This document shows positions 5,962 to 44,462 of a stretch of DNA of 64,000 nt, piece by piece (position 1 is the first letter of the stretch; every line of letters begins with the position of its first letter). This DNA is from Maricaulaceae bacterium. GTDB lineage: Bacteria; Pseudomonadota; Alphaproteobacteria; Caulobacterales; Maricaulaceae. Made by a program: the position numbers and the translations under genes. The stretch lies in contig JBDXGZ010000018.1 of NCBI GenBank assembly GCA_039989855.1, positions 35,415-99,414 on the forward strand, read 5' to 3'. The notes beneath the pieces are model-generated. The model searched no databases. It had not been told where the DNA came from and saw only the letters and a program-made list of their open reading frames with translations.

Positions 5962-5979
5962 CGCCCTCGTCTCTGCTTT

Positions 5980-6879
5980 ATGATGCGCCCTTTAACGATT
6001 GCGATGACGGGCGGCACTGGATTTTTAGGCCCTTATCTTATTCAAGAAGCCGCCTCTCGCGGCCATAAGCTTCGCGTGCTTGCGCGCAATCCCGCTAAGC
6101 TATCACCTAATTTGGGTGAAAATATGACTATCCATCAGGGCAGCCTATCTGACATTCCTCCTGATTTCATTTCAGGCGCAGATGTCGTCTTACACATGGC
6201 AGGACTTATTAAAGCCCCGACACGTGAAGCCTTTTTTGAGGTTAACGGCACAGGAACAGGGCAAGTTGCGGCACTTACTCAGGCCCACGCTGTGCCGCGT
6301 TTTGTCTATCTTTCCTCTCAAGCTGCGACTCAACCGCAGCTTTCTGATTATTGCGCGTCCAAACGCGCAGGTGAGATAGAGCTTGCTGATAACTATACAG
6401 GCGAAGCGGTCATCATTCGAGCCCCTGCCGTCTTTGGCCCAGGGGATGAGGCGACGGCTCCCTTCTTTGCTTTTATGAAGCGTGGCCTCTTGCCTGTTCC
6501 AGGTGGGCGTGGGTGGCGCACACGGAAACTGTCTCTTGTTTATGCTCCTGATTTGGCACGGTTTATCATCGACCAAATTGAAAAGGGCTCCATAATCGAT
6601 CAGCCACTGATACCGGCATCCGTCCCAAGCCTTACATGGCAAGACTTTGCAGATACGGCAGGAGACATCATGGGCCGCACAATTAAGGTCGTGCCTTTAC
6701 CTATAACGATCTTAAAAGTGATTGCAGGGATAAATTCGGCCCTGTTACGCCGACTAATTAACCCGCACTTGACGCTAGGCAAACTTTCCGAGTTCCTATA
6801 TGACGACTGGAGTGTGGCTGAGGCGATTGAGTCTCCCACCGCATTAAAAACAGCTTTAAGAGAGACACTTGAAGCTTAA
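5980..6879 (+). CDS. cerR: NAD(P)-dependent epimerase/dehydratase-fold SDR, candidate ceramide reductase
   Basis: N-terminal Rossmann motif MTGGTGFLGPYL; 299 aa. Sits between the acyl-ACP synthetase and ACP/Spt genes, as the ceramide reductase gene does in Caulobacter (recalled synteny, not searched). Confidence 0.6.
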   Translation: MMRPLTIAMTGGTGFLGPYLIQEAASRGHKLRVLARNPAKLSPNLGENMTIHQGSLSDIPPDFISGADVVLHMAGLIKAPTREAFFEVNGTGTGQVAALTQAHAVPRFVYLSSQAATQPQLSDYCASKRAGEIELADNYTGEAVIIRAPAVFGPGDEATAPFFAFMKRGLLPVPGGRGWRTRKLSLVYAPDLARFIIDQIEKGSIIDQPLIPASVPSLTWQDFADTAGDIMGRTIKVVPLPITILKVIAGINSALLRRLINPHLTLGKLSEFLYDDWSVAEAIESPTALKTALRETLEA

Positions 6880-6925
6880 ACCACGAAACCGCCCTCACGC
6901 GGCAAGAATATGAGATATCGACCTT

Positions 6926-7171
6926 ATGGCGAGTAATGACGAAATTTACCAAAAAGTCTGCGAGCTTTTAAAGCCTTATAACCCCGAGAAACGTCCGATC
7001 TTAATGCAAAGCGGTATCGTCAGTGATCTTGAGGTGGACTCTGTAGCCGTATTTGATTTGGTGATGGGCCTCGAGGATCATTATGATATTTCAATCCCTA
7101 TGGAGATGGTCACAGATATCAAAACCGTCGGTGAGCTTGTGAATGCCATTCAGCAGCTCACGTCAAAATAA
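6926..7171 (+). CDS. Acyl carrier protein (dedicated, sphingolipid-type)
   Basis: 81 aa acidic four-helix-sized protein. Phosphopantetheine attachment context LEVDSVAVFDL. 14 nt upstream of the alpha-oxoamine synthase gene. Confidence 0.8.
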   Translation: MASNDEIYQKVCELLKPYNPEKRPILMQSGIVSDLEVDSVAVFDLVMGLEDHYDISIPMEMVTDIKTVGELVNAIQQLTSK

Positions 7172-7185
7172 CGGAAGCTATAATT

Positions 7186-8409
7186 ATGTCTTTGTTCGAT
7201 AAATATGCACCGCTGCAAAAGCGGATCGATGTAATGACGAAAATTGGCCGTGACGCGCTCGGAGTAAAATTTGATGATATCATCGACGCCACGCGTGGCC
7301 GTGTCGGGAACCGCGAAATTTTACTTGCAGGGACAAATAATTACCTTGGTCTGACCTTTGACGAAGATTGCGTTGCAGCCGCAAAAACCGCGATTGATAA
7401 ATACGGCACTGGAACCACGGGTTCACGTATTGCCAATGGAACTTATACTGATCATATTGCCTTAGAAGACGCCCTAGCCGCGCATTTAAACATGCCGAGC
7501 TGTATTGTTTTCTCCACGGGTTATCAGACTAACCTCGCCGCCATTTCGGGCTTGGCCGGGGATAAGGATGTCATCTTTATGGATGCTGATGCTCATGCTT
7601 GTATTATTGACGGCACACGCCTGACGGGGGCATCAACTATTCGCTTCCGCCATAATAATCCCGAAGACTTGGATAAGCGCTTGCGCCGCCAAGGAGAAAT
7701 TGAAGGCGGGAACGCGCTCGTGGTCATCGAAGGCATGTATTCCATGTTTGGTGACATTGCGCCGATTGATGAATTTCTTGATGTCACTCATAAGCACGGC
7801 GGCTATCTCTATATTGATGAAGCCCATAGTTACGGCGTGTTCGGCCCAACGGGTTGCGGTATTGCCGAGGAACAAGGTGTTCTTGACCGCGTTGATTTTA
7901 TCTCAAGCACATTTTCAAAATCTCTCGCATCGATTGGCGGCTTTTGCGCATCGAAACACCCTGAATTTGAAGTCACCCGCAAAGTCATGCGCCCCTATAT
8001 GTTCACCGCCTCACCGACTCCGTCGAATGTGGCTGCAGCGCTCGCAGCCGTGGATAAAATTAAAGCCGGCGGGCATTTGCGCGATAATCTAAAAGTGCGC
8101 GCGCAGCAGCTTCATAAAGGCCTCAGTGATTTGGGTTATGATCTTTGTGCAGACCCCAGCCCTGTGATTGCGGTGCGACGTCCAAATGAGGCGATTTGTG
8201 CGATGGAATGGAACTGGCTGCTTGATAATGGTATTTACGTCAATCTCGCTGTGCCGCCCGGAACACCCGAGAGCTCAAGCTTGCTCCGCATTAGTCTTTC
8301 TGCGGCCCATAGCGAAGCCGAGGTTAACGAAATCATCGCAAAATTCCGCGACCTCAAAGGCATGGAAGCCCAATTAATGAAAGAGCTGATGAGCAAGATT
8401 ACAGGGTAA
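7186..8409 (+). CDS. spt: Serine palmitoyltransferase-like PLP alpha-oxoamine synthase
   Basis: 407 aa AOS fold: GTGTTGSR, HAxIIDG, DEAHSxG, and the PLP-lysine context STFSKSLASIGG. Linked to its own ACP and acyl ligase rather than to bio genes. Confidence 0.7.
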   Translation: MSLFDKYAPLQKRIDVMTKIGRDALGVKFDDIIDATRGRVGNREILLAGTNNYLGLTFDEDCVAAAKTAIDKYGTGTTGSRIANGTYTDHIALEDALAAHLNMPSCIVFSTGYQTNLAAISGLAGDKDVIFMDADAHACIIDGTRLTGASTIRFRHNNPEDLDKRLRRQGEIEGGNALVVIEGMYSMFGDIAPIDEFLDVTHKHGGYLYIDEAHSYGVFGPTGCGIAEEQGVLDRVDFISSTFSKSLASIGGFCASKHPEFEVTRKVMRPYMFTASPTPSNVAAALAAVDKIKAGGHLRDNLKVRAQQLHKGLSDLGYDLCADPSPVIAVRRPNEAICAMEWNWLLDNGIYVNLAVPPGTPESSSLLRISLSAAHSEAEVNEIIAKFRDLKGMEAQLMKELMSKITG

Positions 8410-29891: not shown

Positions 29892-30707
29892 TTATGACTT
29901 ATCTGCAGGGTCGCTCATTTTTTCGAAATTGGCATCATTTTGCCGAATGGCTGCCTCAAGACGAGCCTCAGCGTCTTGCAGGTTTTTCTTCGGGTCTTGG
30001 TAAAAGGCCGTCAATTTCATGATCTGCAAAAAGGCTTTATTGAGGAACCGTCCCCAGAATTTCATCGGGCGGTCAAAATCAAACAGCAAGATCACCCGCT
30101 CTTCGTCGGTGTCATTCCACACTTCATGCTCATAAGTATCGTCAAAGACAAAGATCTCACCCTCTTTCCATGGGGTGATAGTATCATCAACGCGGATACG
30201 GCACTTCTCGCGGTCTTTCGGGATAATCAAGCCAAGATGCGAACGAAGTATGCCTTTCGTCACGCCCTTATGCGCAGGGATATGATAGCCTGGGGCGAGG
30301 ATAGAAAACATCGCCGTTTGTAAATTCGGGACACTTTCCAAAATATCCGCCGTCTTCGGTGTCAATACCGTGTTTTTCTCAAGCCTCTGTCCAAAGCCGT
30401 AGAGCACAAAGGTCTTCCAATTCTGTTCTGTTGAGAGACGGTATTGATCGGGCGAGATTTCATGGAAGCTCGGGATCGTGTTACGAAATTTTAGCACGTC
30501 CTGCGCCTCATCGCGAATGGTTTCCCAATTATCCGTAAAGATATTTAAGAAATCAAAATGTTCATTGCTGAGCTTAGGCGTATCAGGCACTTGCGATTGA
30601 CGTGTTTGAAAGCTCGCAATTTTACGCACGAGCTTCTTGCCAGTTTTTTTCACAAAAGCCCGGCGAGGATTGTTCAGTTTTTTCGGTTTTTCAACTGCGG
30701 TGGCCAT
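29892..30707 (-). CDS. Aspartyl/asparaginyl beta-hydroxylase-family dioxygenase (LpxO/OlsC-like lipid hydroxylase candidate)
   Basis: HIPAHKGVTKGILRSHLGLIIP and FDDTYEHEVWN motifs of the Fe(II)/2-oxoglutarate Asp/Asn hydroxylase fold. Basic N-terminus. Last gene of the operon. Confidence 0.7.
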   Translation of the reverse strand: MATAVEKPKKLNNPRRAFVKKTGKKLVRKIASFQTRQSQVPDTPKLSNEHFDFLNIFTDNWETIRDEAQDVLKFRNTIPSFHEISPDQYRLSTEQNWKTFVLYGFGQRLEKNTVLTPKTADILESVPNLQTAMFSILAPGYHIPAHKGVTKGILRSHLGLIIPKDREKCRIRVDDTITPWKEGEIFVFDDTYEHEVWNDTDEERVILLFDFDRPMKFWGRFLNKAFLQIMKLTAFYQDPKKNLQDAEARLEAAIRQNDANFEKMSDPADKS

Positions 30708-30722
30708 ATCGTCTACTTTTAA

Positions 30723-32006
30723 TTAGGCTTTGGTCTTAGGGGCTTTACGCGCGCGTTTTTTGGGCGTCTTCTTTTTTAGAATCTTCGGAGCGGCAATTCG
30801 CGCTTCTACCTCGTGCATATAATCTCGCGATATCGGCAAAGCGTTAACATCTTTCGCGAGTTGGATTTGGAAATTCATATGCTTGCCGTGACGGAACGAA
30901 AATTCTGACACAATCAGGTAAAACTCCCACATGCGTGCAAATTTTTCGTCAAACATTTCAATCACAGAATCGCGGTTCGCTTGGAAGCGCTTATCCCACT
31001 CAAGCAAAGTCTCGGCATAATGAAGTCGAAGGATTTCCGTATCCGTCACCCAAAGCCCTGCCTTTTCAATTTCAGCAAAGGTCTCAGATAGAGCCGGCGA
31101 ATAACCGCCGGGGAAAATATATTTTCTAATCCAAGCGCCCGTTGTGCCCGGCCCGCCCTTGCGGCCAATAGAATGAATAAGCGCGCAACCGTCATCGGTT
31201 AAAAGCTCGCGAATCTTGGAGAAATATTCTTGGTAATGAGCAATACCCACATGTTCGAACATGCCGACGGAGACAACACGGTCAAAGGATTCTGTGAGGG
31301 TCCGGTAATCTTGCAGACGCAAATCAACTTTGTCTTCAAGGCCTAGCTCTTTAACCCGCGCTTTACCGAGGGCTAGTTGCTCGTCGGACAAAGTCACACC
31401 TATAACTTTACAGCCAAAGGTCTGCGCCAGATAAATCGCCATGCCGCCCCAACCGCACCCAATATCGAGGACGAGCATACCCTCGCCCGTTTCAGGTGTA
31501 ATATTAAGCTTGGCCGCAATATGAGCCTTCTTAAGGCGTTGCGCCTCTTCTAGGGAAATATCCAACCTCGGCCAATAGGCGCAGCTATATTGCAAATCTT
31601 CATCTAAAAAGAGGCGGTAAAAATCGTTCGACAGATCATAATGATGCTGCACATTTTTACGAGATGCGCTCTTTTTATTACGCTGATGCCAACGGCGAAT
31701 TTTCTTGAGATAGCCTTTAAGCGCCTTTTGTAACGGATGCCCGCGAAGGCCGCCTCGGTTATGGGCGAAGACCTCTAAGAGATTGCGAATACCGTCTTCG
31801 CAAATCAAGGTCCCATCCATATAGGCCTCACCCGCGCGAAGTTCGGGATTTAGAAACAGGCTTTTATAGAGCGCCTTATCGGTAATTCGAATCGTCGCTT
31901 GCGGCTGTCCGCCGGGGCCGTGAACATGCTTATTGCCGTCGACATCAATGATTGTGAGCTGCCCGACTTTTACAAATTGGGCCATCATGGAATTCAGTAA
32001 TTTCAT
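30723..32006 (-). CDS. Cyclopropane-fatty-acyl-phospholipid synthase-family SAM methyltransferase
   Basis: VLDIGCGWGGMAIYLA SAM motif, HYDLSNDFY and SVGMFEHVG, all typical of the CFA/mycolic-acid methyltransferase family. Unusual Lys-rich tail KKKTPKKRARKAPKTKA. Confidence 0.8.
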   Translation of the reverse strand: MKLLNSMMAQFVKVGQLTIIDVDGNKHVHGPGGQPQATIRITDKALYKSLFLNPELRAGEAYMDGTLICEDGIRNLLEVFAHNRGGLRGHPLQKALKGYLKKIRRWHQRNKKSASRKNVQHHYDLSNDFYRLFLDEDLQYSCAYWPRLDISLEEAQRLKKAHIAAKLNITPETGEGMLVLDIGCGWGGMAIYLAQTFGCKVIGVTLSDEQLALGKARVKELGLEDKVDLRLQDYRTLTESFDRVVSVGMFEHVGIAHYQEYFSKIRELLTDDGCALIHSIGRKGGPGTTGAWIRKYIFPGGYSPALSETFAEIEKAGLWVTDTEILRLHYAETLLEWDKRFQANRDSVIEMFDEKFARMWEFYLIVSEFSFRHGKHMNFQIQLAKDVNALPISRDYMHEVEARIAAPKILKKKTPKKRARKAPKTKA

Positions 32007-32025
32007 TCGTACAGGCTTTCTCTAT

Positions 32026-33627
32026 CTATGCGGAGAGCTTTTGCCCTAAATGATCCCCTAAACGCAAGGCCAAAGCCATAATTGTGACCGTGGGATTGGC
32101 CCACCCCCCCGTTGGGAAAACACCACTACTGGCAACATAGAGGTTTGGGCTCTCAAAAAGCTTACAATTGGCGTCAACAACGCCCGTTTGGTCGCTGTCG
32201 CCCATACGAACGCCGCCCATATGGTGATAACCACCGATAGGGTGAGCAGAGATTAGCTTATCCGTTCGCCATGTCACATTTTCGTCAGATAGCCATTTGG
32301 ACGGAATAACCTCTCCCCAACCCAGACGCTTATATTCATCCGCTAAAGTCTCCATCAGAACTCTGACGCTATGACGATCAATATCAAGAAGCTGCCAATC
32401 AAGTTGCGCGCGACGCACACCGAACGCGTCGGTCGCCTCGCCAAGCACAATACGACTATCAGGGTTCGGAGCTTGCTCCGCGCGAACAACCGCAAAGACG
32501 CCGAGTTTCTCGCCCTGCAATTTCATAGCGAGCATGGTCGATTTCGGGTCTGTCTTCTCAAGCCCTTTGATCGCAAGGCCTTTGGCGCGTTTGTAAAGCG
32601 TTCGCCAGAACTTGCTCGACGGTAGGCTATGTTTCAACCCATGAGTCAGGCGGTTGTGCATTTCCATACTCTCTCCGGCACGGCGACGCGCGGCAAAGCT
32701 AATAGACGTGTTGAGAATACCTTCTTTACGTTGAAGGTCTGGAGCGGGACGCATATAGGCGGCGTAGCGCTTACCCTCGACCCGCAGCGCGCGCGGTAGA
32801 ACCGTCAAAGCATGAGCGAGATCGTTTGGAATAATTTCACCGCCGCGCGCATGAGGGTGCTCCATAAAGAAGCGGCCTAAAATATCGTTATCATTACCTA
32901 TACCGTTTGGGCGGCTTGGCACGGCGGCCATTAAAATACGCGCCGATTCAATCGCGCCTGCGGCGACAACAAAGCAGCGGGCGACAACTCGCACTGTTTT
33001 ATCATTTAGAGCTTTAGCCGTTAAACCCGTGACCTCACCTTGTTCAGACACATCAATATCTGTGACCGTGGCGCCAAGTAATATATCGGCCACGTCTAAT
33101 CCATCGCGTGAAAGGTTGGTAAACCGTTCCCCGTTTTCATCAAACACCCATAGGTCTGTGTCGAGTTTCTTAGGATCAAATTCAGGGGCTTCGCGGTCCA
33201 CCACAGGCCAGAGACGGCCTTCTCCAGGACGCTTCAACCCAAGAGACGCAAAAGCTGCGTCGTAATAGGGATCAAGCTCTGACTTTGGAAAGGGCCAGCC
33301 ACTATGAGGGAGATAATCACGCTTTTCAAAATCAATCGGATCAAGCTCCGCACAGCGCCCGCCCCAAATCGCCGCCGTCCCGCCAAACAAGCGCAAGCGA
33401 GAGCTTTCAAGCGGGTAATAGTCTTCGCCGATATTTTCGCCCTGTGCGAGGGTTTGGATATCTTTACGAAAGTCACGCTCTCCGCTCTCAAGAATTAAAG
33501 TCTTGAGATTATAACGAGAAAGTTGTTGCGCCAACGTCTGCCCTGCTACACCGCCGCCGATAATACATATATCAACGTCGAGCTGAGATGGTAGGTCAGA
33601 ATTTAAAAGTGAAGTACGTAGAGCCAC
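32026..33627 (-). CDS. GMC-family FAD-dependent oxidoreductase
   Basis: DICIIGGGVAGQTLA dinucleotide fold. C-terminal HPIGGYHMGG...VVDANCKLFESPNLYVASSGVFPTGG GMC_oxred_C-type motif. GTG start. Confidence 0.8.
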   Translation of the reverse strand: MALRTSLLNSDLPSQLDVDICIIGGGVAGQTLAQQLSRYNLKTLILESGERDFRKDIQTLAQGENIGEDYYPLESSRLRLFGGTAAIWGGRCAELDPIDFEKRDYLPHSGWPFPKSELDPYYDAAFASLGLKRPGEGRLWPVVDREAPEFDPKKLDTDLWVFDENGERFTNLSRDGLDVADILLGATVTDIDVSEQGEVTGLTAKALNDKTVRVVARCFVVAAGAIESARILMAAVPSRPNGIGNDNDILGRFFMEHPHARGGEIIPNDLAHALTVLPRALRVEGKRYAAYMRPAPDLQRKEGILNTSISFAARRRAGESMEMHNRLTHGLKHSLPSSKFWRTLYKRAKGLAIKGLEKTDPKSTMLAMKLQGEKLGVFAVVRAEQAPNPDSRIVLGEATDAFGVRRAQLDWQLLDIDRHSVRVLMETLADEYKRLGWGEVIPSKWLSDENVTWRTDKLISAHPIGGYHHMGGVRMGDSDQTGVVDANCKLFESPNLYVASSGVFPTGGWANPTVTIMALALRLGDHLGQKLSA

Positions 33628-33650: not shown

Positions 33651-34406
33651 TTAAACTACAGAAAAGCGCTTACGCGTTTGTTCTTCTCCACCGAAAATCT
33701 CGCGGCAAACTTCATAATCTTCCGGTGTATCAAGCTCAGCCCACTGGAAGCCCTTAATCAAGGTTGTGTTAATCTCAACACCGCTTTTTGCCAACCCGTG
33801 AATAGCCGATAAATACCAACTTTTGGTTCCATCTTTCGTCCGCATTAACCGTTCTAATTCATCTGTGAAAATCTTAGGTCCATCGCCCATAAAGCGGAGC
33901 ATACCTATCGATTCACCGTTTGTCGCGTCCGCGGACAATGTCTTACCAATCGCCGTTAGCTGACGACCCTCAAGGGTAACCTTCATGTCATCGCCGTCAT
34001 AATAATCTTTTTTATCAATCGTCACAGCAATATCTGATTGCGGTGCATCCAGCACTTTGCGGATAATATTTGGGCTAAAAAGTGTGTCGCCATTTATAAT
34101 GAGGAAGTCTTGTACCATAGATTTACGTACCATCCAGCAAGAGGCTAGATTATCCGCGACTTGGTAGAAGGGATTAAACAATGTCGTAACCTCTGGGCCT
34201 TTTTGACGGCTGGCAAGTTCAGCCTCAACTAAATGCGAATTAAACCCTGTAACAATCGTCGCCGTCTTCACGCCTGCCGCATATAAAGTATCCAGCTGCA
34301 TCCCTAACACCGTCGTGAGACCGATGGGTAGAAGACATTTAGGGAGATCCGTTGTAAGGGGTAATAACCGGGACCCTCGTCCGGCACTTAGAATAATTGC
34401 GTGCAT
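33651..34406 (-). CDS. Sugar/alcohol-phosphate nucleotidyltransferase (LicC / IPCT-like)
   Basis: MHAIILSAGRGSRLLPLTTDLPKCLLPI is the G-x-G-(S/T)-R signature of the NTP_transferase fold. 251 aa. Confidence 0.75.
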   Translation of the reverse strand: MHAIILSAGRGSRLLPLTTDLPKCLLPIGLTTVLGMQLDTLYAAGVKTATIVTGFNSHLVEAELASRQKGPEVTTLFNPFYQVADNLASCWMVRKSMVQDFLIINGDTLFSPNIIRKVLDAPQSDIAVTIDKKDYYDGDDMKVTLEGRQLTAIGKTLSADATNGESIGMLRFMGDGPKIFTDELERLMRTKDGTKSWYLSAIHGLAKSGVEINTTLIKGFQWAELDTPEDYEVCREIFGGEEQTRKRFSVV

Positions 34407-34430: not shown

Positions 34431-35129
34431 TTACCAATGACTTATGCGCCACCCTTCTTCTGACGCATGTTGTGATAGTTTCCTATCAGGATGTATGGCA
34501 ACACATACATTAGCAAGACGAAACATCGCAAGGTCAGAATAGCTATCAGAGTAAAACGTTATATTTGTGATATATTGTTTCAAAACAGGGTTTTCATCTA
34601 TTAAACTATTGAAACAATCTACTTTTTGACCGCCGTAACAATTCGGCGTATTGAAGTTTGATTTCAATATATTACAATCATCGAACCCCATTTCAGTTGA
34701 AATCACATAATCAAACTTAAGTAGCTCTCCAATAGGTTCCGCAATAACATCAACGGCGGCGCTAATCATAACAAGAATATCGCCTTGGTCGCGGTGCATT
34801 TTAACAGCCTCTAAAGCCCCTGGACGCAGTCCATTCGCAAATTCTCTTTGCGCAAATAACTGACCTTTTGAGAAAAGCTTATCCCGAGACGCGCCGGCCA
34901 TAGCCCAACACATCATCTTTCGTTTTACATCCACTCTAGGGCAGAGCCCGCGCTTATATTTCCACTGCGTCCATCCGGCCGACAACAAAAGCGGCAACCA
35001 AATATGAGGGCGAAACTTTACCCAACTCCAAACAAACCGCCCCCATGTCCCGCGCTTGGTCAGTGTGTAGTCGAGGTCAAATACGGCCAACCCTGGTGTT
35101 ACCTCATCGGTGAGACTCGCACTCATCAC
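34431..35129 (-). CDS. HAD-IB family phosphatase
   Basis: FDLDYTLT (DxDxT) motif I and SDSYSDL motif IV, with a cap-sized insertion. 4-nt overlap with the upstream gene. Confidence 0.7.
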   Translation of the reverse strand: MMSASLTDEVTPGLAVFDLDYTLTKRGTWGRFVWSWVKFRPHIWLPLLLSAGWTQWKYKRGLCPRVDVKRKMMCWAMAGASRDKLFSKGQLFAQREFANGLRPGALEAVKMHRDQGDILVMISAAVDVIAEPIGELLKFDYVISTEMGFDDCNILKSNFNTPNCYGGQKVDCFNSLIDENPVLKQYITNITFYSDSYSDLAMFRLANVCVAIHPDRKLSQHASEEGWRISHW

Positions 35130-36235
35130 TTAGAGTCCATCCATGATTGGATTTTTCCACGTCTCAAGAATCCAACACAGACCACAGCAACATTAAAGGC
35201 GATACACACCCATGTCCAAATAGCGACCGTGTAAAAGCCCCAACGGCCTGCTTCGGGCCAGATGCCCATCAACATAATAGCGATCATGAAAATAAACGTA
35301 TTCGGGTTACGGCGCGCAATGATAAACCGCAAAGCCGAATTTATTGGTCGCCACACATGGATATGAAACCCGTGTTGAGCAATAAAGATACCTTCAACAA
35401 TACGGTCAACCACATAGCCGACTAAAATCGCCACAAGCGCAAATGCCATCAGATCCGTCGTGATATTCGGCCAGACAAATACTCCACCGAGCCCGACAAA
35501 CCAGGCCCAATACCAAAAGGGTGGGTGAATGAGATCAATGCCGTGGTCATAGACATTCCCCCATTTAGAGAAAGTCATGGTCGTGCGCGCAAGTTTCCCG
35601 TCCACAGTATCTAAAAAGGTCATGAACCAACCCGTAACAAAGCCTAACGCCCACTGTCCTTGCAAAAAGAAATAAAAGGCCGCCACCGTCATAACTAGGC
35701 TCAGCGTCGTGACCATATTGGGCGTAATGCGTAAATTGGCGCAAAAGCGCGTGGCGTAAAAGGCTGGAACGGGCCAAAAGAATTTAGTTACGAAATCAGT
35801 GATACCCTTATAGGAGCCTGCAAATTGCTGCTTCATAATCACGTCAGGCGACGTGGTACGAACATCAAGCGCATACGGCGCTTCTGTTTTACGCAAGGCT
35901 TTATCATAGGAAGACACTAATTGATCGGGTCGAGCCGTGCGTAAATCCTCAGCCGCAGACGCGGGCCGTCCCAACATGTCTTTATGCCCGCCCGAAACAC
36001 CGATAATGTGACCGTCAACGATCAGCGCAACATTATCACTTTGTGCAAAGGCTTTTAGGAGATTATTGGACAAGACGAAATGTGCATCTAGAAAATGAGA
36101 CACGTCTTGACCATTTTGAGACAACGACAGACCGAATTTTTTATAGGCTCGGGCTTGCCATTCTAGCACCTCAAGCCCCCAGAGCTTCGCCGTGGGCGTC
36201 CCAACAAGATGGATATGACGTACTATGTTTGACAC
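35126..36235 (-). CDS. CDP-alcohol phosphatidyltransferase-family enzyme with ~150-aa soluble N-terminal extension
   Basis: Complete signature DTVDGKLARTTMTFSKWGNVYDHGIDLIHP (D-x2-D-G-x2-A-R-x8-G-x3-D-x3-D) inside a multi-TM C-terminal half. 369 aa, far longer than a PgsA-type enzyme. Confidence 0.8.
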   Translation of the reverse strand: MSNIVRHIHLVGTPTAKLWGLEVLEWQARAYKKFGLSLSQNGQDVSHFLDAHFVLSNNLLKAFAQSDNVALIVDGHIIGVSGGHKDMLGRPASAAEDLRTARPDQLVSSYDKALRKTEAPYALDVRTTSPDVIMKQQFAGSYKGITDFVTKFFWPVPAFYATRFCANLRITPNMVTTLSLVMTVAAFYFFLQGQWALGFVTGWFMTFLDTVDGKLARTTMTFSKWGNVYDHGIDLIHPPFWYWAWFVGLGGVFVWPNITTDLMAFALVAILVGYVVDRIVEGIFIAQHGFHIHVWRPINSALRFIIARRNPNTFIFMIAIMLMGIWPEAGRWGFYTVAIWTWVCIAFNVAVVCVGFLRRGKIQSWMDSK

Positions 36236-36236
36236 T

Positions 36237-37607
36237 TTATTCCTTAAATTTCACACGTTGCTTTAAAGTATGCTTAGCCATAATCGTGACAATAATAACT
36301 GTAAAAAGATTTCCAACGAAAACCGCCCATGCCGCAGACATAGGGCCGACGGCCTTGGCCATTGCAAACAGTGCTACCAAATAGACAATCACTCCTGCGC
36401 CCCTCGCAATAATCGCTCGTTCTGGATGATCGGCTGCAAAAAATATAGGATATAGCGGGGCGGCAGCACCCATAAGCGCTGCGGCGGGAACTAAAATCAT
36501 GGCTATAGGCACAGCAGGTTCAAACCCTTCCCTAGCAATTAAGAGCAAGATATTTTCACCAAACACAAAAAACACGCCTGACATAAAGCAGCCAAACAAA
36601 AATAAGATAGCCGCCGCACGCGTCGTTAATTTCCAAATTTTTTCCACTTTTCCTTCGGTCACCATACGCGCTAATTCTGGATATATTACCTGATCGAGGA
36701 GTTTAAACCCTTCCGAGAGAAGCTTAGCAATTTCTTCAGCGATTTTGTAAATTCCGTTCCAAACAGGGCCAAAGATAGCAAATACAAGTAAATTAGGCAG
36801 ATGCACCGTCGCGGCGCCTAAGGTCGAATCAATGTTGGATTTAATAACAAAACTCCAAAGCCCTTTGCGCTTAGGTTTAAAAAAATTGATCTTGGCTTTA
36901 AAGACTGACTTTAATAAATGTCGCCGTTTTAATTCCCGTAAGGCCATAAATGGTAAGAATATATAGGCCGCTAGAGAGCCACAGAACCACGCGAGTAAAA
37001 AGCCCTCAAAGCCCGCATTTGTTACCACGGCTGTCACCGCCCCGATAAAGCGCACAACTGGCATGACGACCGCTTTAACGGCAAGAACATTAAATTGATC
37101 AAATAAACGGAAAACGCCAATAGACGCACCGCGTTGCCTCAGCAGCACCAATATACAATAAAGCGCCGCGTAATTTCGAACATCTTCTAAAGTAAACTTT
37201 TCACCTAAATTTATTCCATCGCCATAATTTTGCCCCATCCAGACTGAAAAGCTGAACAATGCGATCGCTAAAACATACGCAAAAACCGCAGAAATAGCAT
37301 CCAGCTTAATCCCAAAATTAATCAACTTACTCAGCTTAGAGCTATCTTTATTGTGCAGATCATCAGTTCCGTAACGAATAATCGCTTGCCAAGATTGAAA
37401 GGCCGTCACTTCTGAAAAAAATGACATATAACCATGAAGGAAAACCAGAACGCCAAACTCAGTTGGGGTCAGAAACTTTGTCCCCAAACTGAAGCTACCT
37501 AAGCCGACGATCACCCCTAAAAACTTCGACCCCACCATAAGGCCGCCGTTCTTTGCGATACGTTTTTGCCGAGAGTGTTTAGAATTCACCGATAGATCAG
37601 GGCTCAT
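36237..37607 (-). CDS. MOP/Wzx-type polytopic flippase-like membrane protein
   Basis: 456 aa with ~12-14 hydrophobic helices and the polysaccharide-biosynthesis (Polysacc_synt) type of layout. 1-nt gap and 4-nt overlap with its neighbours. Confidence 0.65.
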   Translation of the reverse strand: MSPDLSVNSKHSRQKRIAKNGGLMVGSKFLGVIVGLGSFSLGTKFLTPTEFGVLVFLHGYMSFFSEVTAFQSWQAIIRYGTDDLHNKDSSKLSKLINFGIKLDAISAVFAYVLAIALFSFSVWMGQNYGDGINLGEKFTLEDVRNYAALYCILVLLRQRGASIGVFRLFDQFNVLAVKAVVMPVVRFIGAVTAVVTNAGFEGFLLAWFCGSLAAYIFLPFMALRELKRRHLLKSVFKAKINFFKPKRKGLWSFVIKSNIDSTLGAATVHLPNLLVFAIFGPVWNGIYKIAEEIAKLLSEGFKLLDQVIYPELARMVTEGKVEKIWKLTTRAAAILFLFGCFMSGVFFVFGENILLLIAREGFEPAVPIAMILVPAAALMGAAAPLYPIFFAADHPERAIIARGAGVIVYLVALFAMAKAVGPMSAAWAVFVGNLFTVIIVTIMAKHTLKQRVKFKE

Positions 37608-38383
37608 GACGTCTCTCGCTTTATTGACCGCTCTGCCTCTTTGATCAGTATCTGCTCAACCAATATACGGTCCGAGGGCTTATCGACATCAATCGCGGCT
37701 TCAGGGACCGACATCAGTACAGGGGCCGCTGTAATGCCGAGAGTTTTGGACGCATAAGCCAAGGCTCCGTCCAAGGTTAACTTACCACGCCAATAGCGCC
37801 AAAATAGCGGCAAGCTAATTTTACGCGCTAATTTTAAAGGCTGCTTTCTAAAATGCTGTGCGTCTTTCCAAAATTCAATCGCGGCAAGGCCTCGCTCATT
37901 AGCAATGTAAAAAAGATTGCATCCCGAAACGGCATGGTCAGCAAAGCGTAAATAGGTCCGCTTTACATGCGGGTATGCCGGGTGGATAATCGTCTCTTCG
38001 GCCAGACCGAGACAAAAATCAGCATCCGTAGCTTGGGATTTTTCGATAAATTCTCTAATCATATCCGCCGTTAAAAGCGGATGGTCGGCGGTGGTCATTA
38101 GCACGGGAAATGACATGCCGTGGCTCAAGGCGGCGAGCGCACTACCAGCAGGGCCGGCCTCAGACGGAGCTTGCGTCAACCGCTTATCAACACTGGCGGG
38201 GCAACCGCTAATATGAAACGGCTCCTTTAGAGCCGCCGCATCCAACGCATCCACAACATAACTCAACATAGGACGCCCCAAAATTGGGACTAACGCTTTT
38301 CGCGGCTCACCTGTATCAGCGCAAAGCGGGTCGACAACACCCTCACGTTGTCCTGCCAATATAAGAACATTAACGGATGTCAC
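37604..38383 (-). CDS. MobA-like (NTP_transf_3) nucleotidyltransferase-family protein
   Basis: VLILAGQREG...ALVPILGRPML N-terminal nucleotide-binding loop and MTTADHPLL. 259 aa. Confidence 0.6.
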   Translation of the reverse strand: MTSVNVLILAGQREGVVDPLCADTGEPRKALVPILGRPMLSYVVDALDAAALKEPFHISGCPASVDKRLTQAPSEAGPAGSALAALSHGMSFPVLMTTADHPLLTADMIREFIEKSQATDADFCLGLAEETIIHPAYPHVKRTYLRFADHAVSGCNLFYIANERGLAAIEFWKDAQHFRKQPLKLARKISLPLFWRYWRGKLTLDGALAYASKTLGITAAPVLMSVPEAAIDVDKPSDRILVEQILIKEAERSIKRETS

Positions 38384-39531
38384 GCGCTCAACACCTTTTC
38401 ATACATGCGGTAGGTCTTATAAAGTTTTGCGTCCGCTTGCTCACATATGCCCCGCATGCCTTTATTATCTTCTAATATCCAAGACAGTTCGCACATATCG
38501 TAGCCTTGGGCCGCCCCCGCTTTGAACACATCTTCGCAAATACGGCACAGAGCGGCAAGACCGCGCTTTGTATTTTGATGCTCTTTCCTCAGCCCCATCA
38601 AAGGGATGCGGGCCGACTTGATTTTCTTACCCTTCAAGCGCGCGATGAGTTTCGCCCAACCAAAGGGCCATAATCGACCATCGAGGTCACGGGTCGCCTC
38701 ATTAATATTGGGGATCATCCAAATGAAGGCCGCTGGCTCCCCGTCAATCATGGCGAGGCGGTAACCTTCTTTAAAGATAATCGGCTTTAGCTCTTTGGCT
38801 GTATGGGCAATTTGTTCATCCGTTAGCGGCACAAAACCCCAATTATCAGACCACGCATCATTAAAAATCGACATCGCTAAATTAACTTCATCTATGAATT
38901 TTGTGGGATCCAACGTGCGAAAGCTAATCCCTGCATCACGCTCAACGATTTTGTTTAGGCGGCGCATAAACGGCCCCGGTGTAAAGCCTTCTGCTAAATC
39001 CGCACGGTAAGCCAAGAGGTCAATCGCTTTTTCAAGGCCTGCGCCTTCAATCATGTCTATATAGTCAGGACGACCGTAAGGCATCATCAACACATTGGGA
39101 TGCTCAAATCCGTCAATCAACAGACCACTTTCCTCATTCACGCTATGATTAGACGGGCCAATCATTTTACGTGCGCCCTTGGCCCGTAGCCAGTCCTCCG
39201 CTCGCTTTAATAAAGCCGCGCCCGTTTCCGCCTGCGCTTCGCAATCAAAATAGCCGAAATGCCCAGCTTCGTCATTATAGCGCTCGCGGTGATGAGGATT
39301 AAGGAAGGCCGCAATACGGCCCACAACCACATCGCCGCGTTTGGCAATAAACAACTGACGCTCAAGATGGGCCGCGTTCGGGTTTTTAATCTGAGAAATT
39401 TGATCAGCGCGCTCAAAGCGGAGCGGCGGATGCCACGTCGCCTGTCCACGGTATAGACCGTAAGGCACATCCAGAAAGGATTTAAGCTGCGCTTTATCCT
39501 GATCATTGATAGGTAAAATATTGACCGACAC
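38380..39531 (-). CDS. Two-lobed GNAT-like N-acyltransferase (candidate bacterial ceramide synthase-type enzyme)
   Basis: 383 aa. C-terminal lobe RIPLMGLRKEHQNTKRGLAALCRICEDV resembles the GNAT acyl-CoA binding segment. GTG start with an AGGAAAAGG RBS. First gene of the operon. Confidence 0.5.
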   Translation of the reverse strand: MSVNILPINDQDKAQLKSFLDVPYGLYRGQATWHPPLRFERADQISQIKNPNAAHLERQLFIAKRGDVVVGRIAAFLNPHHRERYNDEAGHFGYFDCEAQAETGAALLKRAEDWLRAKGARKMIGPSNHSVNEESGLLIDGFEHPNVLMMPYGRPDYIDMIEGAGLEKAIDLLAYRADLAEGFTPGPFMRRLNKIVERDAGISFRTLDPTKFIDEVNLAMSIFNDAWSDNWGFVPLTDEQIAHTAKELKPIIFKEGYRLAMIDGEPAAFIWMIPNINEATRDLDGRLWPFGWAKLIARLKGKKIKSARIPLMGLRKEHQNTKRGLAALCRICEDVFKAGAAQGYDMCELSWILEDNKGMRGICEQADAKLYKTYRMYEKVLSA

Positions 39532-39613
39532 GACCTTTTCCTAACCCTTTACAGGCGAATGAACCAATCGTGGCCTGACGTCAATTCGTTAAATGGCCGC
39601 TTACGGGAAAAGT

Positions 39614-40159
39614 TTAAGATTTCTTCTTTTTACTTTTGCCAACTTTTTGGAAGAAGATCTCAATATCCGTGCCCTTTTCTCCCACATTAAAAGCGGCGTC
39701 GTTAAATTTCGGCAACTTCTTCTTATATTCTGGGTTGTTTGACAGGCCGTACGGCTCTTTCGGGGTGAAGTCCCACTTTTGCTTCAACTTCCGGTTTCCG
39801 TCTAAATCGTGATAGCCTGCTACCGCATACATTCCCGCCTTCGGCACATTAATACAGACCACCATCGGGCTATCTTTGGCTTCAACGCGCACACGGTGCA
39901 ACCGGCCTTTTTTATATAAAAACCCATCTTTACTATTATAAAGCTCAAGCTTTAAAATACCTTCCGCGTGGATATTATGCGCTGTGACACGAATTTGAGT
40001 CGTATCCGCTACACATTCATCGGCCGCGTCACGTTCATAAAGCTCTAAAGTTGGATGCACCACAGGCCCATAATCTTCATCAGCTCCCGCTAGAACGGAA
40101 CCGTTCACATACAGTAGAAGTGCGACAAACATTAAGCCTTTGATAGATATGAACTTCAT
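39614..40159 (-). CDS. DUF2141-like secreted protein
   Basis: Signal peptide. GYHDLDGNRKL...PKEPYGLSNNP resembles the DUF2141 signature. Lys-rich tail GKSKKKKS. 82 nt upstream of the operon on the same strand. Confidence 0.6.
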   Translation of the reverse strand: MKFISIKGLMFVALLLYVNGSVLAGADEDYGPVVHPTLELYERDAADECVADTTQIRVTAHNIHAEGILKLELYNSKDGFLYKKGRLHRVRVEAKDSPMVVCINVPKAGMYAVAGYHDLDGNRKLKQKWDFTPKEPYGLSNNPEYKKKLPKFNDAAFNVGEKGTDIEIFFQKVGKSKKKKS

Positions 40160-40178
40160 AATTGCCTTTATGGTGTTA

Positions 40179-40192
40179 ATTCCCTAGGGAAT
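40179..40192. promoter_or_regulatory. Perfect 14-bp palindrome ATTCCCTAGGGAAT in the divergent DUF2141 / lptF intergenic region
   Basis: Read directly. It lies 20 nt from the DUF2141 start codon and 67 nt from the lptF start codon. Confidence 0.3.
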
Positions 40193-40258
40193 GCCTTAAA
40201 TTATTATACAATATGGTCATCGACCGCGAAAAGTAAACTTACGATTGTTACACTTACA

Positions 40259-41464
40259 ATGAACCGCCTGAACAGATACTTAATGAAAAACGCTTTAACC
40301 AGCATTGGTGGCCTCATTGTCTTCGCGATTGTGGTTCTTTTGCTTGAACGGCTATTACGAATTTTTCAAGTTATTACTAACTCGACTCAACCCGCATTAG
40401 ATGCTGGATCAATGATCGTCTTTCTCCTCCCGCACTATCTCGGCATTGCCGTTCCAATGGCTTTGCTTTTAGGGATCATCATTACAATTGACCGTTTTAG
40501 TCGATCCAGTGAGCTAACCGCCGCCTACGGCGCAGGCATATCACTGTTCCATATTACTAAACCCTTCATTTTAATTGCCGTAATATTAGCAAGCACCACG
40601 GTATTTATTGAAGGATATATGCAACCCATCGGGCGCTACAATTACCGACAGGTCGAACATAATGTGAAACAACAATCCTTTGCGGCGATTCTCCGTGAAG
40701 GGACATTTACCGAAGTCGGCAACCGCATGTTTTATGCAGGCACCGAAAAACCAGGCAAAGCCATTGGACCTATTTTTATCTATGAACAAGTAAAGGATAA
40801 AACAGACGCAATATCACTTCGCATCACAACCGCCGAAGAAGGTCAGCTCATCATCAGAGAGGAAACAGGGGAGCCCGTCCTACAATTGGCTGAAGGGCAA
40901 GGTTATCGTATTTTAGACAAAACCCGCTTAAGAGGCGACCTATCCTTTGAAAGCAGTTCTGTCGCAGGAACCGCAGAGGTAACACAATTTCGACCACGCG
41001 GTGACGATGAGCGTGAACTGACCTCTCTTGAACTTATAAAAAACCGTGATGGGAGCGTCTATACGACCGTCAGTCCTGATGTAAATAATGCGGCCCTCCA
41101 CCTACGAATTGCACGAGCGACTCTTTTATTAATCATACCCTTTATTGCGGTCCCTTTTGGATTGAACTATGGTCGCAACCCATCATCGACTGGGCTTTTT
41201 GTCGGTGTGGTTATGCTCGTGTCTTGCCAAAAGGCGTTAGAGTTTGGGCAAAGCCTTGGGGCAAAAAACATCTTACCCGCATGGGCCGGCGTTTGGTTTG
41301 TCATTTTAATTGTCGCCATTTTTGCCTTTTACATCTTCACCAAGAGTGCTTTCAAAATGGGGCAGCCTCCCTTGACGTCGATAAATATGGGCATCAAAAA
41401 TATGAAAATGGCAATGTCAGGTCGCATCAAACGACTTCGTCGCGCATGGGTAGAGTTGAAATAA
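40259..41464 (+). CDS. lptF: LPS export ABC transporter permease, YjgP/YjgQ family
   Basis: LNRYLMKNAL start, three plus three TM segments flanking a large periplasmic domain. TAATG junction with its paralogue. Confidence 0.75.
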   Translation: MNRLNRYLMKNALTSIGGLIVFAIVVLLLERLLRIFQVITNSTQPALDAGSMIVFLLPHYLGIAVPMALLLGIIITIDRFSRSSELTAAYGAGISLFHITKPFILIAVILASTTVFIEGYMQPIGRYNYRQVEHNVKQQSFAAILREGTFTEVGNRMFYAGTEKPGKAIGPIFIYEQVKDKTDAISLRITTAEEGQLIIREETGEPVLQLAEGQGYRILDKTRLRGDLSFESSSVAGTAEVTQFRPRGDDERELTSLELIKNRDGSVYTTVSPDVNNAALHLRIARATLLLIIPFIAVPFGLNYGRNPSSTGLFVGVVMLVSCQKALEFGQSLGAKNILPAWAGVWFVILIVAIFAFYIFTKSAFKMGQPPLTSINMGIKNMKMAMSGRIKRLRRAWVELK

Positions 41465-42549
41465 TGTATAAAATTTTCACCTATTTATCTGGAAGCTATA
41501 TCCGTATTTGGCTGACCACCGTTTTTGGTTTCCTTGTACTTATTGGGCTACTGGATTCACTCGCCAACGGCGGAGATATTATCGGCAATGGCGGCCAATT
41601 CACAGATACGTTTAAATATATGGCCTACCGTGCACCTGTCATTTTTGATAGAATTTTTGTCTTCACTCTCGTGGTCGCAATCTTGCTTTTATTTGTCAAA
41701 CTTATCAGGCAGCATGAATTAGTCGCGCTTTTAGGATTTGGCATATCCGCCCCCAAACAGCTTATGCTTCTCACACCTGTTGTTGTCGGCGCAGCACTTG
41801 TCTCTATTACAATCATCAATACAGCCATGCCGCAGTCAGTTCGGGCCCTACAAGCGTGGGGTATCGGCGAATATAAAATTAAAAACATCTCACCCGAAAA
41901 CCCTTTATGGTTCGAAGATAACCGCGAAATCGTCCGCGCCTCTTTACGTTTTGGAATGGATGATCTGGGAAATATCGAAATTTTTTCACGTGAAATTGAC
42001 GGCCGCATAAATAGCTACATAATTGCCAACCGTGCGACATATGATTTTGACGCCCAGCATTGGAAACTAACAGGTGTTAAGCAATTAGATATTGCCAGTG
42101 CCGACGGGCGACCTGTGAATGCCAAATCTGTGAATGAACCACTCGTTTGGAATTCTGCACAAAACCCTGAGTCCATTGCTCGACTTGCAGCCGAACCAAG
42201 AGACCTCGATTTAACGGACATGAAAACATTTAGCGAAAAAGGTAATTCGGGCAGTAAGCCACGCTTTGCTTATGAGTTTTGGTATCTACACCGTTTAACG
42301 CGTCCAATTGCGGCCTTTATACTGCTACTTTGTGCCGTGCCAATCATGCAACGCGTAAGACGACAGGATACGGGCGATAAGGCCCTCATTATCGGTATTA
42401 GTATGGGTTTTATCTTCCTCATTATTGACGGCGCATTAGCCACATTTGCGACAACTGGCGGCATGACCGTGTTGACAGCTATTATATCGCCTCTGATACT
42501 CTTTGGTTTGATAGGAACTTATCTCTGTCTTCAAACGGAAACTCTATAG
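41464..42549 (+). CDS. lptG: LPS export ABC transporter permease, YjgP/YjgQ family
   Basis: ATG 41464 (MYKIFTYLSGSYIRIWL) shares one nucleotide with the lptF stop codon. Same three-plus-three TM layout. The ORF extension back to 41224 was rejected. Confidence 0.75.
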   Translation: MYKIFTYLSGSYIRIWLTTVFGFLVLIGLLDSLANGGDIIGNGGQFTDTFKYMAYRAPVIFDRIFVFTLVVAILLLFVKLIRQHELVALLGFGISAPKQLMLLTPVVVGAALVSITIINTAMPQSVRALQAWGIGEYKIKNISPENPLWFEDNREIVRASLRFGMDDLGNIEIFSREIDGRINSYIIANRATYDFDAQHWKLTGVKQLDIASADGRPVNAKSVNEPLVWNSAQNPESIARLAAEPRDLDLTDMKTFSEKGNSGSKPRFAYEFWYLHRLTRPIAAFILLLCAVPIMQRVRRQDTGDKALIIGISMGFIFLIIDGALATFATTGGMTVLTAIISPLILFGLIGTYLCLQTETL

Positions 42550-42561
42550 CGAGCGGCCCTT

Positions 42562-43512
42562 ATGACCGATCGTATAATATTTTTCTCCAATTCAAAAAGC
42601 CAAGGCGTTCGCCGCAAAGGCAGTCGATTACTCGCCTTTTACACAGCCCATAAAACTAAAAAGTACATCTATACTGATGATCCAGCTGCACTGTTACAAA
42701 TCGAGTTTACGGCGCAAGACCATCTCTTTATCGAAGGTGGTGACGGGACCTTACAAAAGACTATCACAGGCTTGCTCAATTCGCTCACCGATATTGCTCA
42801 CTGTCCGAAACTCTCAATCGTAGCAGGCGGATTGACCAATCAAATCGCGGCCAATATTGGCCTTAAAGCGAAACAAGACGCAGACATAAATGACGCCATA
42901 ATCGCACCGCAAAGAGGGTTGCGCCCAACACCCATCCTCAAGCTCGACTATATGGGGACCCAATCCCAATATGGCTGCCTGTTTTCAACAGGGGCCTTGC
43001 CATTCGTTACAGATTATTATGAACAGAAAATCCGCGCCAACCCGACAGGCGGAACATCTGGAATCGTAACGACATTGATTAAGGCTGTGTCGGGCAACCA
43101 AGCGGCAAGGGATAAATTGATGCCGGCTACAGAACTTGAACTTGTCTTGAGAAACGGCAAGCAAGAGATATTGAAAACAGGGGCGCATCTCGGCACTATC
43201 GTAACAACCCTACCGTCACTTATGATGGGGCTTGATCCGTTTTGGGGTCAAGGCGAAGGAGATTTGCGCGTCCTTTATGCGGATGGGCGCGCACGGCGTT
43301 TAGTCCGTAATCTGACAGGGGTTTGGTTGGGGCGTAAGTCCATTGACCGCTCAGCCGACGGGCTTGAAAGCTTTCAAAGTGATAGGCTCACCTATCATTA
43401 TAACGGTCCCAAAATTCTCGACGGGGAGAAACTCGAGACGGGAGAAAATAATGGCCCTCTCACCATCAGCGCAACACCGCCCTTGCCCTTTGTTGCAACA
43501 CCCAAGTCATGA
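42562..43512 (+). CDS. DAGK-catalytic-fold lipid kinase (diacylglycerol/sphingosine/ceramide kinase superfamily)
   Basis: FIEGGDGTLQKTITGL (GGDGT signature) and IVAGGLTNQIAANIGL (the GT-x-N segment). 12 nt after lptG. Confidence 0.6.
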   Translation: MTDRIIFFSNSKSQGVRRKGSRLLAFYTAHKTKKYIYTDDPAALLQIEFTAQDHLFIEGGDGTLQKTITGLLNSLTDIAHCPKLSIVAGGLTNQIAANIGLKAKQDADINDAIIAPQRGLRPTPILKLDYMGTQSQYGCLFSTGALPFVTDYYEQKIRANPTGGTSGIVTTLIKAVSGNQAARDKLMPATELELVLRNGKQEILKTGAHLGTIVTTLPSLMMGLDPFWGQGEGDLRVLYADGRARRLVRNLTGVWLGRKSIDRSADGLESFQSDRLTYHYNGPKILDGEKLETGENNGPLTISATPPLPFVATPKS

Positions 43513-44462
43513 CGGACCCCTCTCAAGTTATCACTGACATTAAAACCGTGCTCTCTACGGAGACCGCTATTGCCAGTGCGCGGATTGAAAAAACCTGCAC
43601 CGATATTGCAGAGGCCCACGCGAGCTCCCAAGGTAGCCATGTGCTAGGGTTTCTATATTACGGCTCTTCTTTACGGGACGTCGATGACGCCTCAAAAATG
43701 CTAGATTTCTACGTCATCGTTGATAGCTATAAGACAGTTCACAAAGGTCGCCCTGTTCGGCAAATCATCAATCGTTACCTTCCGCCTGTGGTCTATTATT
43801 ATGAGCGCGAAGACGCGGACGGCACCCTGACGACCTGTAAATATTCACTGATTTCCCTACCTGAATTTGAGCGGCGCTGTGGAAGCTCAGCCTTCTTATC
43901 CATCATCTGGGGCCGCTTTTCTCAGCCGAGCTTATTATATTTTCCCAAAGATGAAACGATTGAAAATAAAATCCTCACCGCACGCGCTAACGCTGTCTTA
44001 CATGTCGCCCGTTGCACCGAAGGTTTATTTAACCACGCACCGACGTTTATAGAATTTTGGGCGCGCGGCTTTCGTGAAAGCTACCGCACAGAATTGCGCC
44101 CTGAAAGCTCCGAGGCACGGTCTCGGGAAATCGTCGCCAAATATTCCGATCGTTATGAAAAATTGATGCAGACCATTTACGGCGCGCCCAATGAAGAGGC
44201 GGCATATGCTCTTCCGACATCGTCAAGCCGATCAAAAGCGGCGCGGCAATGGTTCCTTCGCCGCCTCATGGGGCGACCGATAACGGCCATACGCGTGCTG
44301 TGTAGTGCGGCCACTTTTGACGGCGGCCTTGACTATGTCTTGCGCAAAATCGAGCGGCACTCGGGCGTGACCCTTGAGCCGAGCCCGTTTCAACGCAAGC
44401 ACCCCGTTCTTTGCGCTCCCGTACTTGGGTGGAAGCTTTGGCGCAAAGGCGCGTTCGGCTAG
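43509..44462 (+). CDS. Tam41/Mmp37-like nucleotidyltransferase (candidate CDP-lipid synthase)
   Basis: FLYYGSSL...MLDFYVIVD...VVYYYE...TCKYSLISL...IWGRFSQPSLL follows the pattern I recall for the Mmp37/Tam41 phosphatidate cytidylyltransferase family. ATGA overlap with the kinase gene. Confidence 0.5.
   Translation: MTDPSQVITDIKTVLSTETAIASARIEKTCTDIAEAHASSQGSHVLGFLYYGSSLRDVDDASKMLDFYVIVDSYKTVHKGRPVRQIINRYLPPVVYYYEREDADGTLTTCKYSLISLPEFERRCGSSAFLSIIWGRFSQPSLLYFPKDETIENKILTARANAVLHVARCTEGLFNHAPTFIEFWARGFRESYRTELRPESSEARSREIVAKYSDRYEKLMQTIYGAPNEEAAYALPTSSSRSKAARQWFLRRLMGRPITAIRVLCSAATFDGGLDYVLRKIERHSGVTLEPSPFQRKHPVLCAPVLGWKLWRKGAFG

Follow-up and report, generated by a model that had tools for sequence, protein, structure and literature searches.

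A window of 64,000 nucleotides (nt) from a Maricaulaceae bacterium (assembly GCA_039989855.1, contig JBDXGZ010000018.1) carries, among other genes for sphingolipid synthesis, an open reading frame (ORF) whose 383-residue product, P0001, is very probably the orthologue of the bacterial ceramide synthase (bCerS or CerS) known from Caulobacter as CC_1154 (CCNA_01212, ACL94677.1, UniProt A0A0H3C8X0). A single ORF on the minus strand fills positions 38380-39531 of the window exactly, from a GTG at 39531 to a TGA at 38380; the plus-strand reading of the same interval, which is riddled with stops, was rejected. An earlier sequence-only reading had put this gene forward as the N-acyltransferase missing from the spt block of the same window. 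That block (4168-8409) indeed consists of aasR, cerR, a gene for an 81-residue acyl carrier protein (acpR) and spt, and it holds no acyltransferase gene.

P0001 shares 42% identity, over 382 of 383-384 residues (E 1e-92), with the 'ceramide synthase' of Caulobacter sp. BE264 (WP_310216496.1), which is itself 98% identical to WP_096051747.1 of C. vibrioides, whose species representative stands in for strains NA1000 and CB15, and 90% identical to WP_013079826.1 of C. segnis; exact-sequence look-ups showed that all three carry the NCBI name 'ceramide synthase'. In the reciprocal search, by tblastn, the Caulobacter protein found only the P0001 ORF in the P0001 genome (E 4e-82; next match E 2.8), and P0001 itself found no paralogue there (2.71 Mb, 99.96% complete; tblastn, next matches at E >= 1). 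P0001 and the Caulobacter ceramide synthase are reciprocal best matches, with P0001 present in a single copy, and the better homologue elsewhere in the genome against which the sequence-only reading had cautioned did not appear. The frame itself is well placed at its start, because only three in-frame codons precede the GTG before a stop is reached (an open frame of 386 residues) and nearly all homologues are 379-388 residues long. The family is very large: of 8,000 candidates scored, more than 7,900 reach E <= 1e-3, and the majority are unnamed or 'hypothetical'; the closest named homologues come from Fretibacter, Litorimonas and Maricaulaceae. The label 'dATP pyrophosphohydrolase', evidently a propagated misannotation, persists on many bCerS orthologues in NCBI and UniRef, among them proteins of C. 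henricii, C. segnis and Hyphococcus.

The distribution of the gene follows that of the enzyme that would supply its substrate. We profiled 121 Caulobacterales genomes with P0001 and with the Spt encoded at 7186-8409 of the window, using thresholds of E <= 1e-73 for P0001 homologues and E <= 1e-90 for Spt. Matches to P0001 occurred in 48 of the 121 genomes, 43 of them strong (E 3.6e-74 or better, 39-59% identity) and five weak, and the 43 genomes with a strong homologue are the identical set to the 43 with Spt, a count in which related genomes are not independent samples. The agreement also holds genome by genome inside patchy genera (5/14 in g18 and 4/7 in g24), which implies repeated joint gain or loss of bcerS and spt. 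Proximity points the same way: the two genes are about 5 kb apart in eight of 13 same-family genomes, and 235 bp apart in G020.

Gene order ties the Caulobacter homologue of P0001 to CC_1154. The proteins of the window were mapped, by tblastn, onto 20 kb around the strong P0001 match in four large genomes of one family, the Caulobacter loci L013, L014, L015 and L017. The order found was (aasR)-cerR-spt; on the other strand cpgC-cpgB-CDP-alcohol transferase; (DUF2141); lptF2-lptG2-[P0001 homologue]-CC_1153-like; and CC_1152-like, where aasR lay inside the fetched stretch in L013 only and the DUF2141 gene was seen in L014 and L017. The published order in Caulobacter crescentus runs from CC_1165 to CC_1152, with CC_1154 (CCNA_01212) as the ceramide synthase (PMC11324152; PMC9393093). 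Because the order in the four loci equals the published one, the P0001 homologue, which lies between lptG2 and the CC_1153-like gene, occupies the CC_1154 slot. The proposal that P0001 is a bCerS homologue was thus borne out by full-length similarity, by locus position and by co-occurrence with Spt.

The sequence-only reading had also described P0001 as a two-lobed, GNAT-like protein, and the predicted structure agrees. An AlphaFold2 model built on 34 homologues (mean pLDDT 87.1, pTM 0.85) has a tandem-GNAT fold of two lobes, and its best Foldseek matches in the PDB are tandem-GNAT proteins, namely 2wpw, 5kf1, 7q3a, MshD (1ozp) and VipF, with E values from 3e-15 to 1e-8, TM-scores of 0.55-0.61 and identities of 11-14%. 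The top scores were those of 2wpw, a clavulanate-pathway tandem GNAT (E 3e-15), and 5kf1, a glucosamine N-acetyltransferase (TMq 0.61); more distant matches were N-myristoyltransferase, FemX and the C-domain of MprF, and over the whole list identity to P0001 was 8-14%. Membership of P0001 in the GNAT superfamily rests on this predicted fold, because its match to PF00583 (Acetyltransf_1), which covers the N-lobe only, stays below the Pfam cut-off (17.5 bits against 20.7). A PDB sequence search with P0001 gave nothing significant, the sole match being 4fbd at E 0.076.

When P0001 is aligned with orthologues of the Maricaulaceae type, from Hyphococcus and, in five cases, from Caulobacter, 70 positions are invariant. 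In the N-terminal half these include GRI near residue 71 and GPxNxS(V/I)NEExG(L/M)LxxGF (125-142); in the middle, NDAWxxNWG (224-232) and LPF(G/N)W and RLK (287-300); and in the C-terminal part, ARxPLMG (307-313) followed by G324, ExSWxLxxN (348-356) and YKTYRxYEK (371-379). The NEE of the second motif (N132/E134) comes directly after the core of the N-lobe. The motif RIPLMGLRKEHQNTKRGLAAL covers residues 308-328, and within it lie the invariant strand R308-x-P-L-M-G313 and, where the following helix begins, G324. This strand-loop-helix, ARxPLMG...RG, is found at the position where GNAT domains bind the pyrophosphate of coenzyme A (CoA), and the equivalent loop of the N-lobe differs between lineages. 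Because ARxPLMG and G324 are invariant in the C-lobe and the N-lobe loop is not conserved, we infer that acyl-CoA binding and catalysis fall to the C-lobe and that the N-lobe helps to form the site for the lipid acceptor. Other tandem GNATs, MshD among them, are built in this way. The lack of a conserved CoA-binding loop in the N-lobe might also be taken as a sign that P0001 is a decayed or noncatalytic copy, kept for a structural or regulatory role, although such a lack is usual for the noncatalytic lobe of tandem GNATs; since the frame is intact and full length, 70 positions are invariant with distant orthologues, and the genome retains the complete Spt/CerR/CpgB/CpgC set but no other copy, we find this explanation scarcely credible.

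Several points weigh against the identification of P0001 as a ceramide synthase. Its activity is predicted from sequence, fold and gene context, and its link to CC_1154 runs through the C. vibrioides orthologue and the published gene order rather than through the NA1000 sequence. No model in Pfam or NCBIfam (release 20) recognises it, the NCBIfam scan having given no match, and PDB sequence and Foldseek searches showed that no bCerS of any origin has a solved structure. The gene also lies 30 kb from spt, farther than in most relatives. Finally, the five weak matches of the profile (23-27% identity, E 1e-18 to 1e-30, about 370-400 residues) belong to genomes that lack Spt (G003, G023, G073, G104 and G119), so that the superfamily is not confined to ceramide synthesis. 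These weak relatives make up a sister family of tandem GNATs, so far uncharacterised, and an Spt-derived base cannot be their substrate.

Together with two other observations, namely that the solved structures closest in fold belong to enzymes acetylating glucosamine, mycothiol precursors or proteins and that many database copies bear the unrelated name 'dATP pyrophosphohydrolase', the weak relatives could be taken to mean that P0001 N-acylates a nonsphingoid substrate, such as an amino sugar, an amino acid or another amino lipid, and resembles bCerS at the superfamily level only. We consider this very improbable, given the 42% full-length identity and reciprocal best match to the Caulobacter enzyme, the homologue in the CC_1154 slot and the complete (43/43) co-occurrence with Spt. 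The solved tandem GNATs (2wpw, 5kf1, 7q3a (MAB_4324) and MshD, 1ozp/2c27) share the two lobes with P0001 (Foldseek E 3e-15 to 5e-9, TMq 0.54-0.61) but just 11-14% of residues, and they are unlike bCerS in that their donors carry acetyl instead of long-chain acyl groups, their acceptors are water-soluble and they are shorter (about 290-340 residues).

As for the distance from spt, the spt block is separated by about 30 kb from the genes at 38380-44462, with two-component, cupin and other genes between. In a genome of the same family (G110, locus L028) aasR, spt, cpgC, cpgB, lptG2, lptF2, DUF2141, cerS, the CC_1153-like gene, the membrane protein, the CpgA-like gene and the HAD phosphatase form one contiguous set, in which the spt block abuts cpgC, and all sphingolipid genes found in that genome lie in this one cluster. 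Because the whole set is contiguous in so close a relative, the separation in the window looks like a local, lineage-specific rearrangement.

With P0001 as the ceramide synthase, each gene of the pathway worked out in Caulobacter (PMC11087976; PMC9393093; PMC11324152) has a homologue in the window. On that model AasR would load AcpR, and Spt would condense the acyl group with serine to give 3-ketodihydrosphingosine. P0001, as a soluble or peripherally membrane-bound cytoplasmic enzyme, would then N-acylate the C2 amino group of this long-chain base, with acyl-CoA as the donor in the published model and 3-ketodihydrosphingosine as the acceptor. The resulting oxidised ceramide would be flipped or exported and then reduced by CerR. 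CpgB would phosphorylate the ceramide; CpgC, the CpgA-like transferase and the CC_1153- and CC_1152-like nucleotidyltransferases would build the phosphoglycerate head groups; and LptF2 and LptG2 are thought to aid export.

The order of acylation and reduction is debated in the literature (PMC11324152, PMC9386255), and the same enzyme might act in a eukaryote-like order, in which CerR first reduces 3-ketodihydrosphingosine to sphinganine and P0001 then makes dihydroceramide. Olea-Ozuna et al. originally proposed that order for CC_1164 and CC_1154 (summarised in PMC11324152 and PMC9386255), and nothing in the sequence of P0001 fixes the acceptor; the Caulobacter cerR mutant, however, accumulates oxidised ceramide, and we regard the reduction-first order as unlikely, though it is the most serious of the alternatives.

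The likeness to the Caulobacter system extends beyond the identity to its C. vibrioides-group orthologue. The two proteins have about 383-384 residues, the same motifs, a tandem GNAT fold and no transmembrane segment; in both systems a CC_1153-like nucleotidyltransferase gene follows with overlapping stop and start, lptF2 and lptG2 are adjacent, and the enzyme occurs in Spt genomes only. P0001 has no predicted transmembrane segment or signal peptide (maximum 19-residue Kyte-Doolittle hydropathy 1.03), which fits the cytoplasmic, peripherally membrane-associated location of the Caulobacter enzyme (PMC11087976). The arrangement differs in that in Caulobacter bcerS comes after lptG2, in the same orientation and some 7 kb away from spt, whereas in the window bcerS follows the DUF2141 gene, is divergent from lptF2 and stands at the greater distance from spt already described. 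In the window a longer co-directional string also runs on from bcerS, and it includes the CC_1166-like protein, the CpgA-like transferase, the HAD phosphatase, the CC_1152-like nucleotidyltransferase, a GMC oxidoreductase, a cyclopropane-fatty-acid synthase and an OlsC-like hydroxylase.

A close parallel to this order is found in Hyphomonas neptunium, where HNE_1584, a CerS orthologue, and HNE_1583-1578 are listed as cerS, CC_1153-like, CC_1157-like, CC_1159-like, (one gene) and CC_1152-like (PMC11324152, S2A Table). Compared by published order, this closely matches the cerS, CC_1153-like, membrane protein, CpgA-like, HAD and CC_1152-like succession of the window, although the DUF2141 (CC_1157-like) gene stands before cerS in the window and after it in Hyphomonas neptunium. 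The physical link between ceramide formation and the head-group genes that the sequence-only reading proposed is therefore real, but had already been published for CC_1154-CC_1153 in Caulobacter and HNE_1584-1579 in Hyphomonas. YghO of E. coli BL21 (ECD_02850), an acyl-CoA N-acyltransferase ('aca') in the sphingolipid-type cluster of E. coli B, is listed as a CC_1154 homologue (PMC9386255); it is likened to P0001 here by that published listing, and its function in E. coli is a suggestion. The eukaryotic ceramide synthases (Lag1/CerS) carry out the same overall reaction, the N-acylation of a sphingoid base, with an unrelated, polytopic TLC-domain fold. Bacterial and eukaryotic ceramide synthases are regarded as convergent.

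The start and end of bcerS bear on how the gene is expressed. A purine-rich stretch, AGGAAAAGG, ends 3 nt before the GTG, so that a ribosome-binding site is present as had been claimed, but it is a moderate Shine-Dalgarno sequence, not a full AGGAGG, and 'strong' overstated it. The coupling to the next gene was described correctly: the stop of bcerS and the GTG of the CC_1153-like gene overlap by 4 nt (GTGA, 38383-38380). The description of bcerS as leading its operon, in contrast, is doubtful. The same strand carries, 82 nt farther upstream, a gene for a DUF2141 protein, and a simple scan of the gap between the two found neither a terminator-like site nor a sigma-70-like promoter. On the minus strand the scan gave a single terminator-like site, which spans the start codon of bcerS (39535-39523) and is likely to be a chance occurrence, two sites having been found against 1.3 expected. 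The same order, DUF2141 and then the GNAT gene, recurs in Hyphococcus (L016) and in the same-family genome (L028), and the unit probably begins with the DUF2141 gene, bcerS being second.

In the relatives the DUF2141 gene was located at 9208-9576 in L016, 8218-8703 in L028, 6677-7027 in L014 and 5966-6373 in L017. It is always at the promoter region divergent from lptF2, and in three lineages it is directly upstream of bcerS on the same strand. Its Caulobacter homologue, CC_1157, has been called 'probably unrelated' (PMC11324152); from its conserved placement, the DUF2141 protein may belong to the sphingolipid system after all.

The features of the window that belong to, or surround, the system are collected in Table 1.

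Table 1. Sphingolipid genes and neighbouring features of the window, in order of position.
Feature	Position	Strand	Basis
aasR, ceramide backbone block	4168-5961	+	Pfam; homology to Caulobacter loci
cerR, ceramide backbone block	5980-6879	+	Pfam; homology to Caulobacter loci
acpR, 81-residue acyl carrier protein	6926-7171	+	ORF
spt	7186-8409	+	Pfam; homology to Caulobacter loci
CC_1152-like sugar/alcohol-phosphate nucleotidyltransferase	33651-34406	-	PF00483 1.4e-12; 48-52% identity to CC_1152-slot gene
HAD-IB phosphatase	34431-35129	-	PF12710 5e-24; TIGR01490; present in relative L028
CpgA (CC_1159/CCNA_01217)-like CDP-alcohol phosphatidyltransferase	35126-36235	-	PF01066 1.6e-10; 39-42% identity, E about 1e-80, to CC_1159-slot gene
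456-residue polytopic membrane protein, CC_1166-slot homologue (putative sphingolipid flippase)	36237-37607	-	about 8 hydrophobic segments
MobA/CofC-like nucleotidyltransferase, CC_1153-slot homologue	37604-38383	-	PF12804 8e-14
bcerS orthologue, tandem-GNAT N-acyltransferase P0001	38380-39531	-	ORF, reciprocal best match, synteny, Spt co-occurrence, predicted fold
DUF2141 protein, 181 residues, N-terminal hydrophobic segment, CC_1157-slot homologue	39614-40159	-	PF09912 3.9e-26
lptF2-lptG2-cpgB-cpgC divergent operon (sphingolipid export pair, ceramide kinase, CpgC)	40259-44462	+	tblastn synteny, CC_1156/CC_1155/CC_1160/CC_1161 slots

In the four Caulobacter loci, the gene that immediately follows the bCerS homologue is 36-39% identical to the CC_1153-like nucleotidyltransferase. 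The 456-residue membrane protein, for which Pfam and NCBIfam gave no match, is 28.5% identical (E 1e-45) to the product of the ORF directly upstream of aasR in a further Caulobacter locus (L027); in the window its gene has moved into the bcerS operon. The function of CpgA is taken from PMC9393093. The HAD-IB phosphatase gene, which has no counterpart in the loci L013-L017, overlaps the CpgA-like gene by 4 nt and is thereby coupled to it. Caulobacter has instead an unrelated phosphoesterase, CC_1158, and the HAD-IB enzyme could be a nonhomologous replacement that dephosphorylates an intermediate in CPG2 synthesis. The co-directional string ends, at 29892-33627 on the minus strand, with genes for a GMC-family flavin adenine dinucleotide (FAD) oxidoreductase, a cyclopropane-fatty-acid synthase (its 536 bits against NF053839 fall slightly short of the cut-off of 600) and an OlsC/LpxO-like acyl hydroxylase. 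None of these three has a counterpart in the 20-kb Caulobacter loci, and their products may modify acyl chains, whether in the sphingolipid or in other membrane lipids.

A bolder proposal, which we put forward tentatively and think unlikely, is that bcerS is transcribed as one unit with the gene for the upstream, secreted DUF2141 protein, itself an unrecognised pathway component, and with the full downstream line (the CC_1166-like flippase candidate, the CpgA-like transferase, the HAD phosphatase, the two nucleotidyltransferases, the GMC oxidoreductase, the cyclopropane-fatty-acid synthase and the OlsC-like hydroxylase), and that the lineage makes an undescribed, chain-tailored phosphosphingolipid. 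If so, this lipid would be a hydroxylated and/or cyclopropanated phosphosphingolipid related to CPG2.

As an orthologue of a known enzyme P0001 is a straightforward case, from a marine lineage that is unstudied, and it introduces no new principle. For the family, a dedicated hidden Markov model would be useful because neither Pfam nor NCBIfam has a family model, and it would correct thousands of records now entered as 'hypothetical protein' or 'dATP pyrophosphohydrolase'. For the organism, the assignment closes the apparent gap in the ceramide pathway of the genome, adding bCerS to Spt, AcpR, AasR and CerR, and since it completes the set, this marine member of the Caulobacterales is predicted to make ceramide-based anionic lipids like those of Caulobacter.

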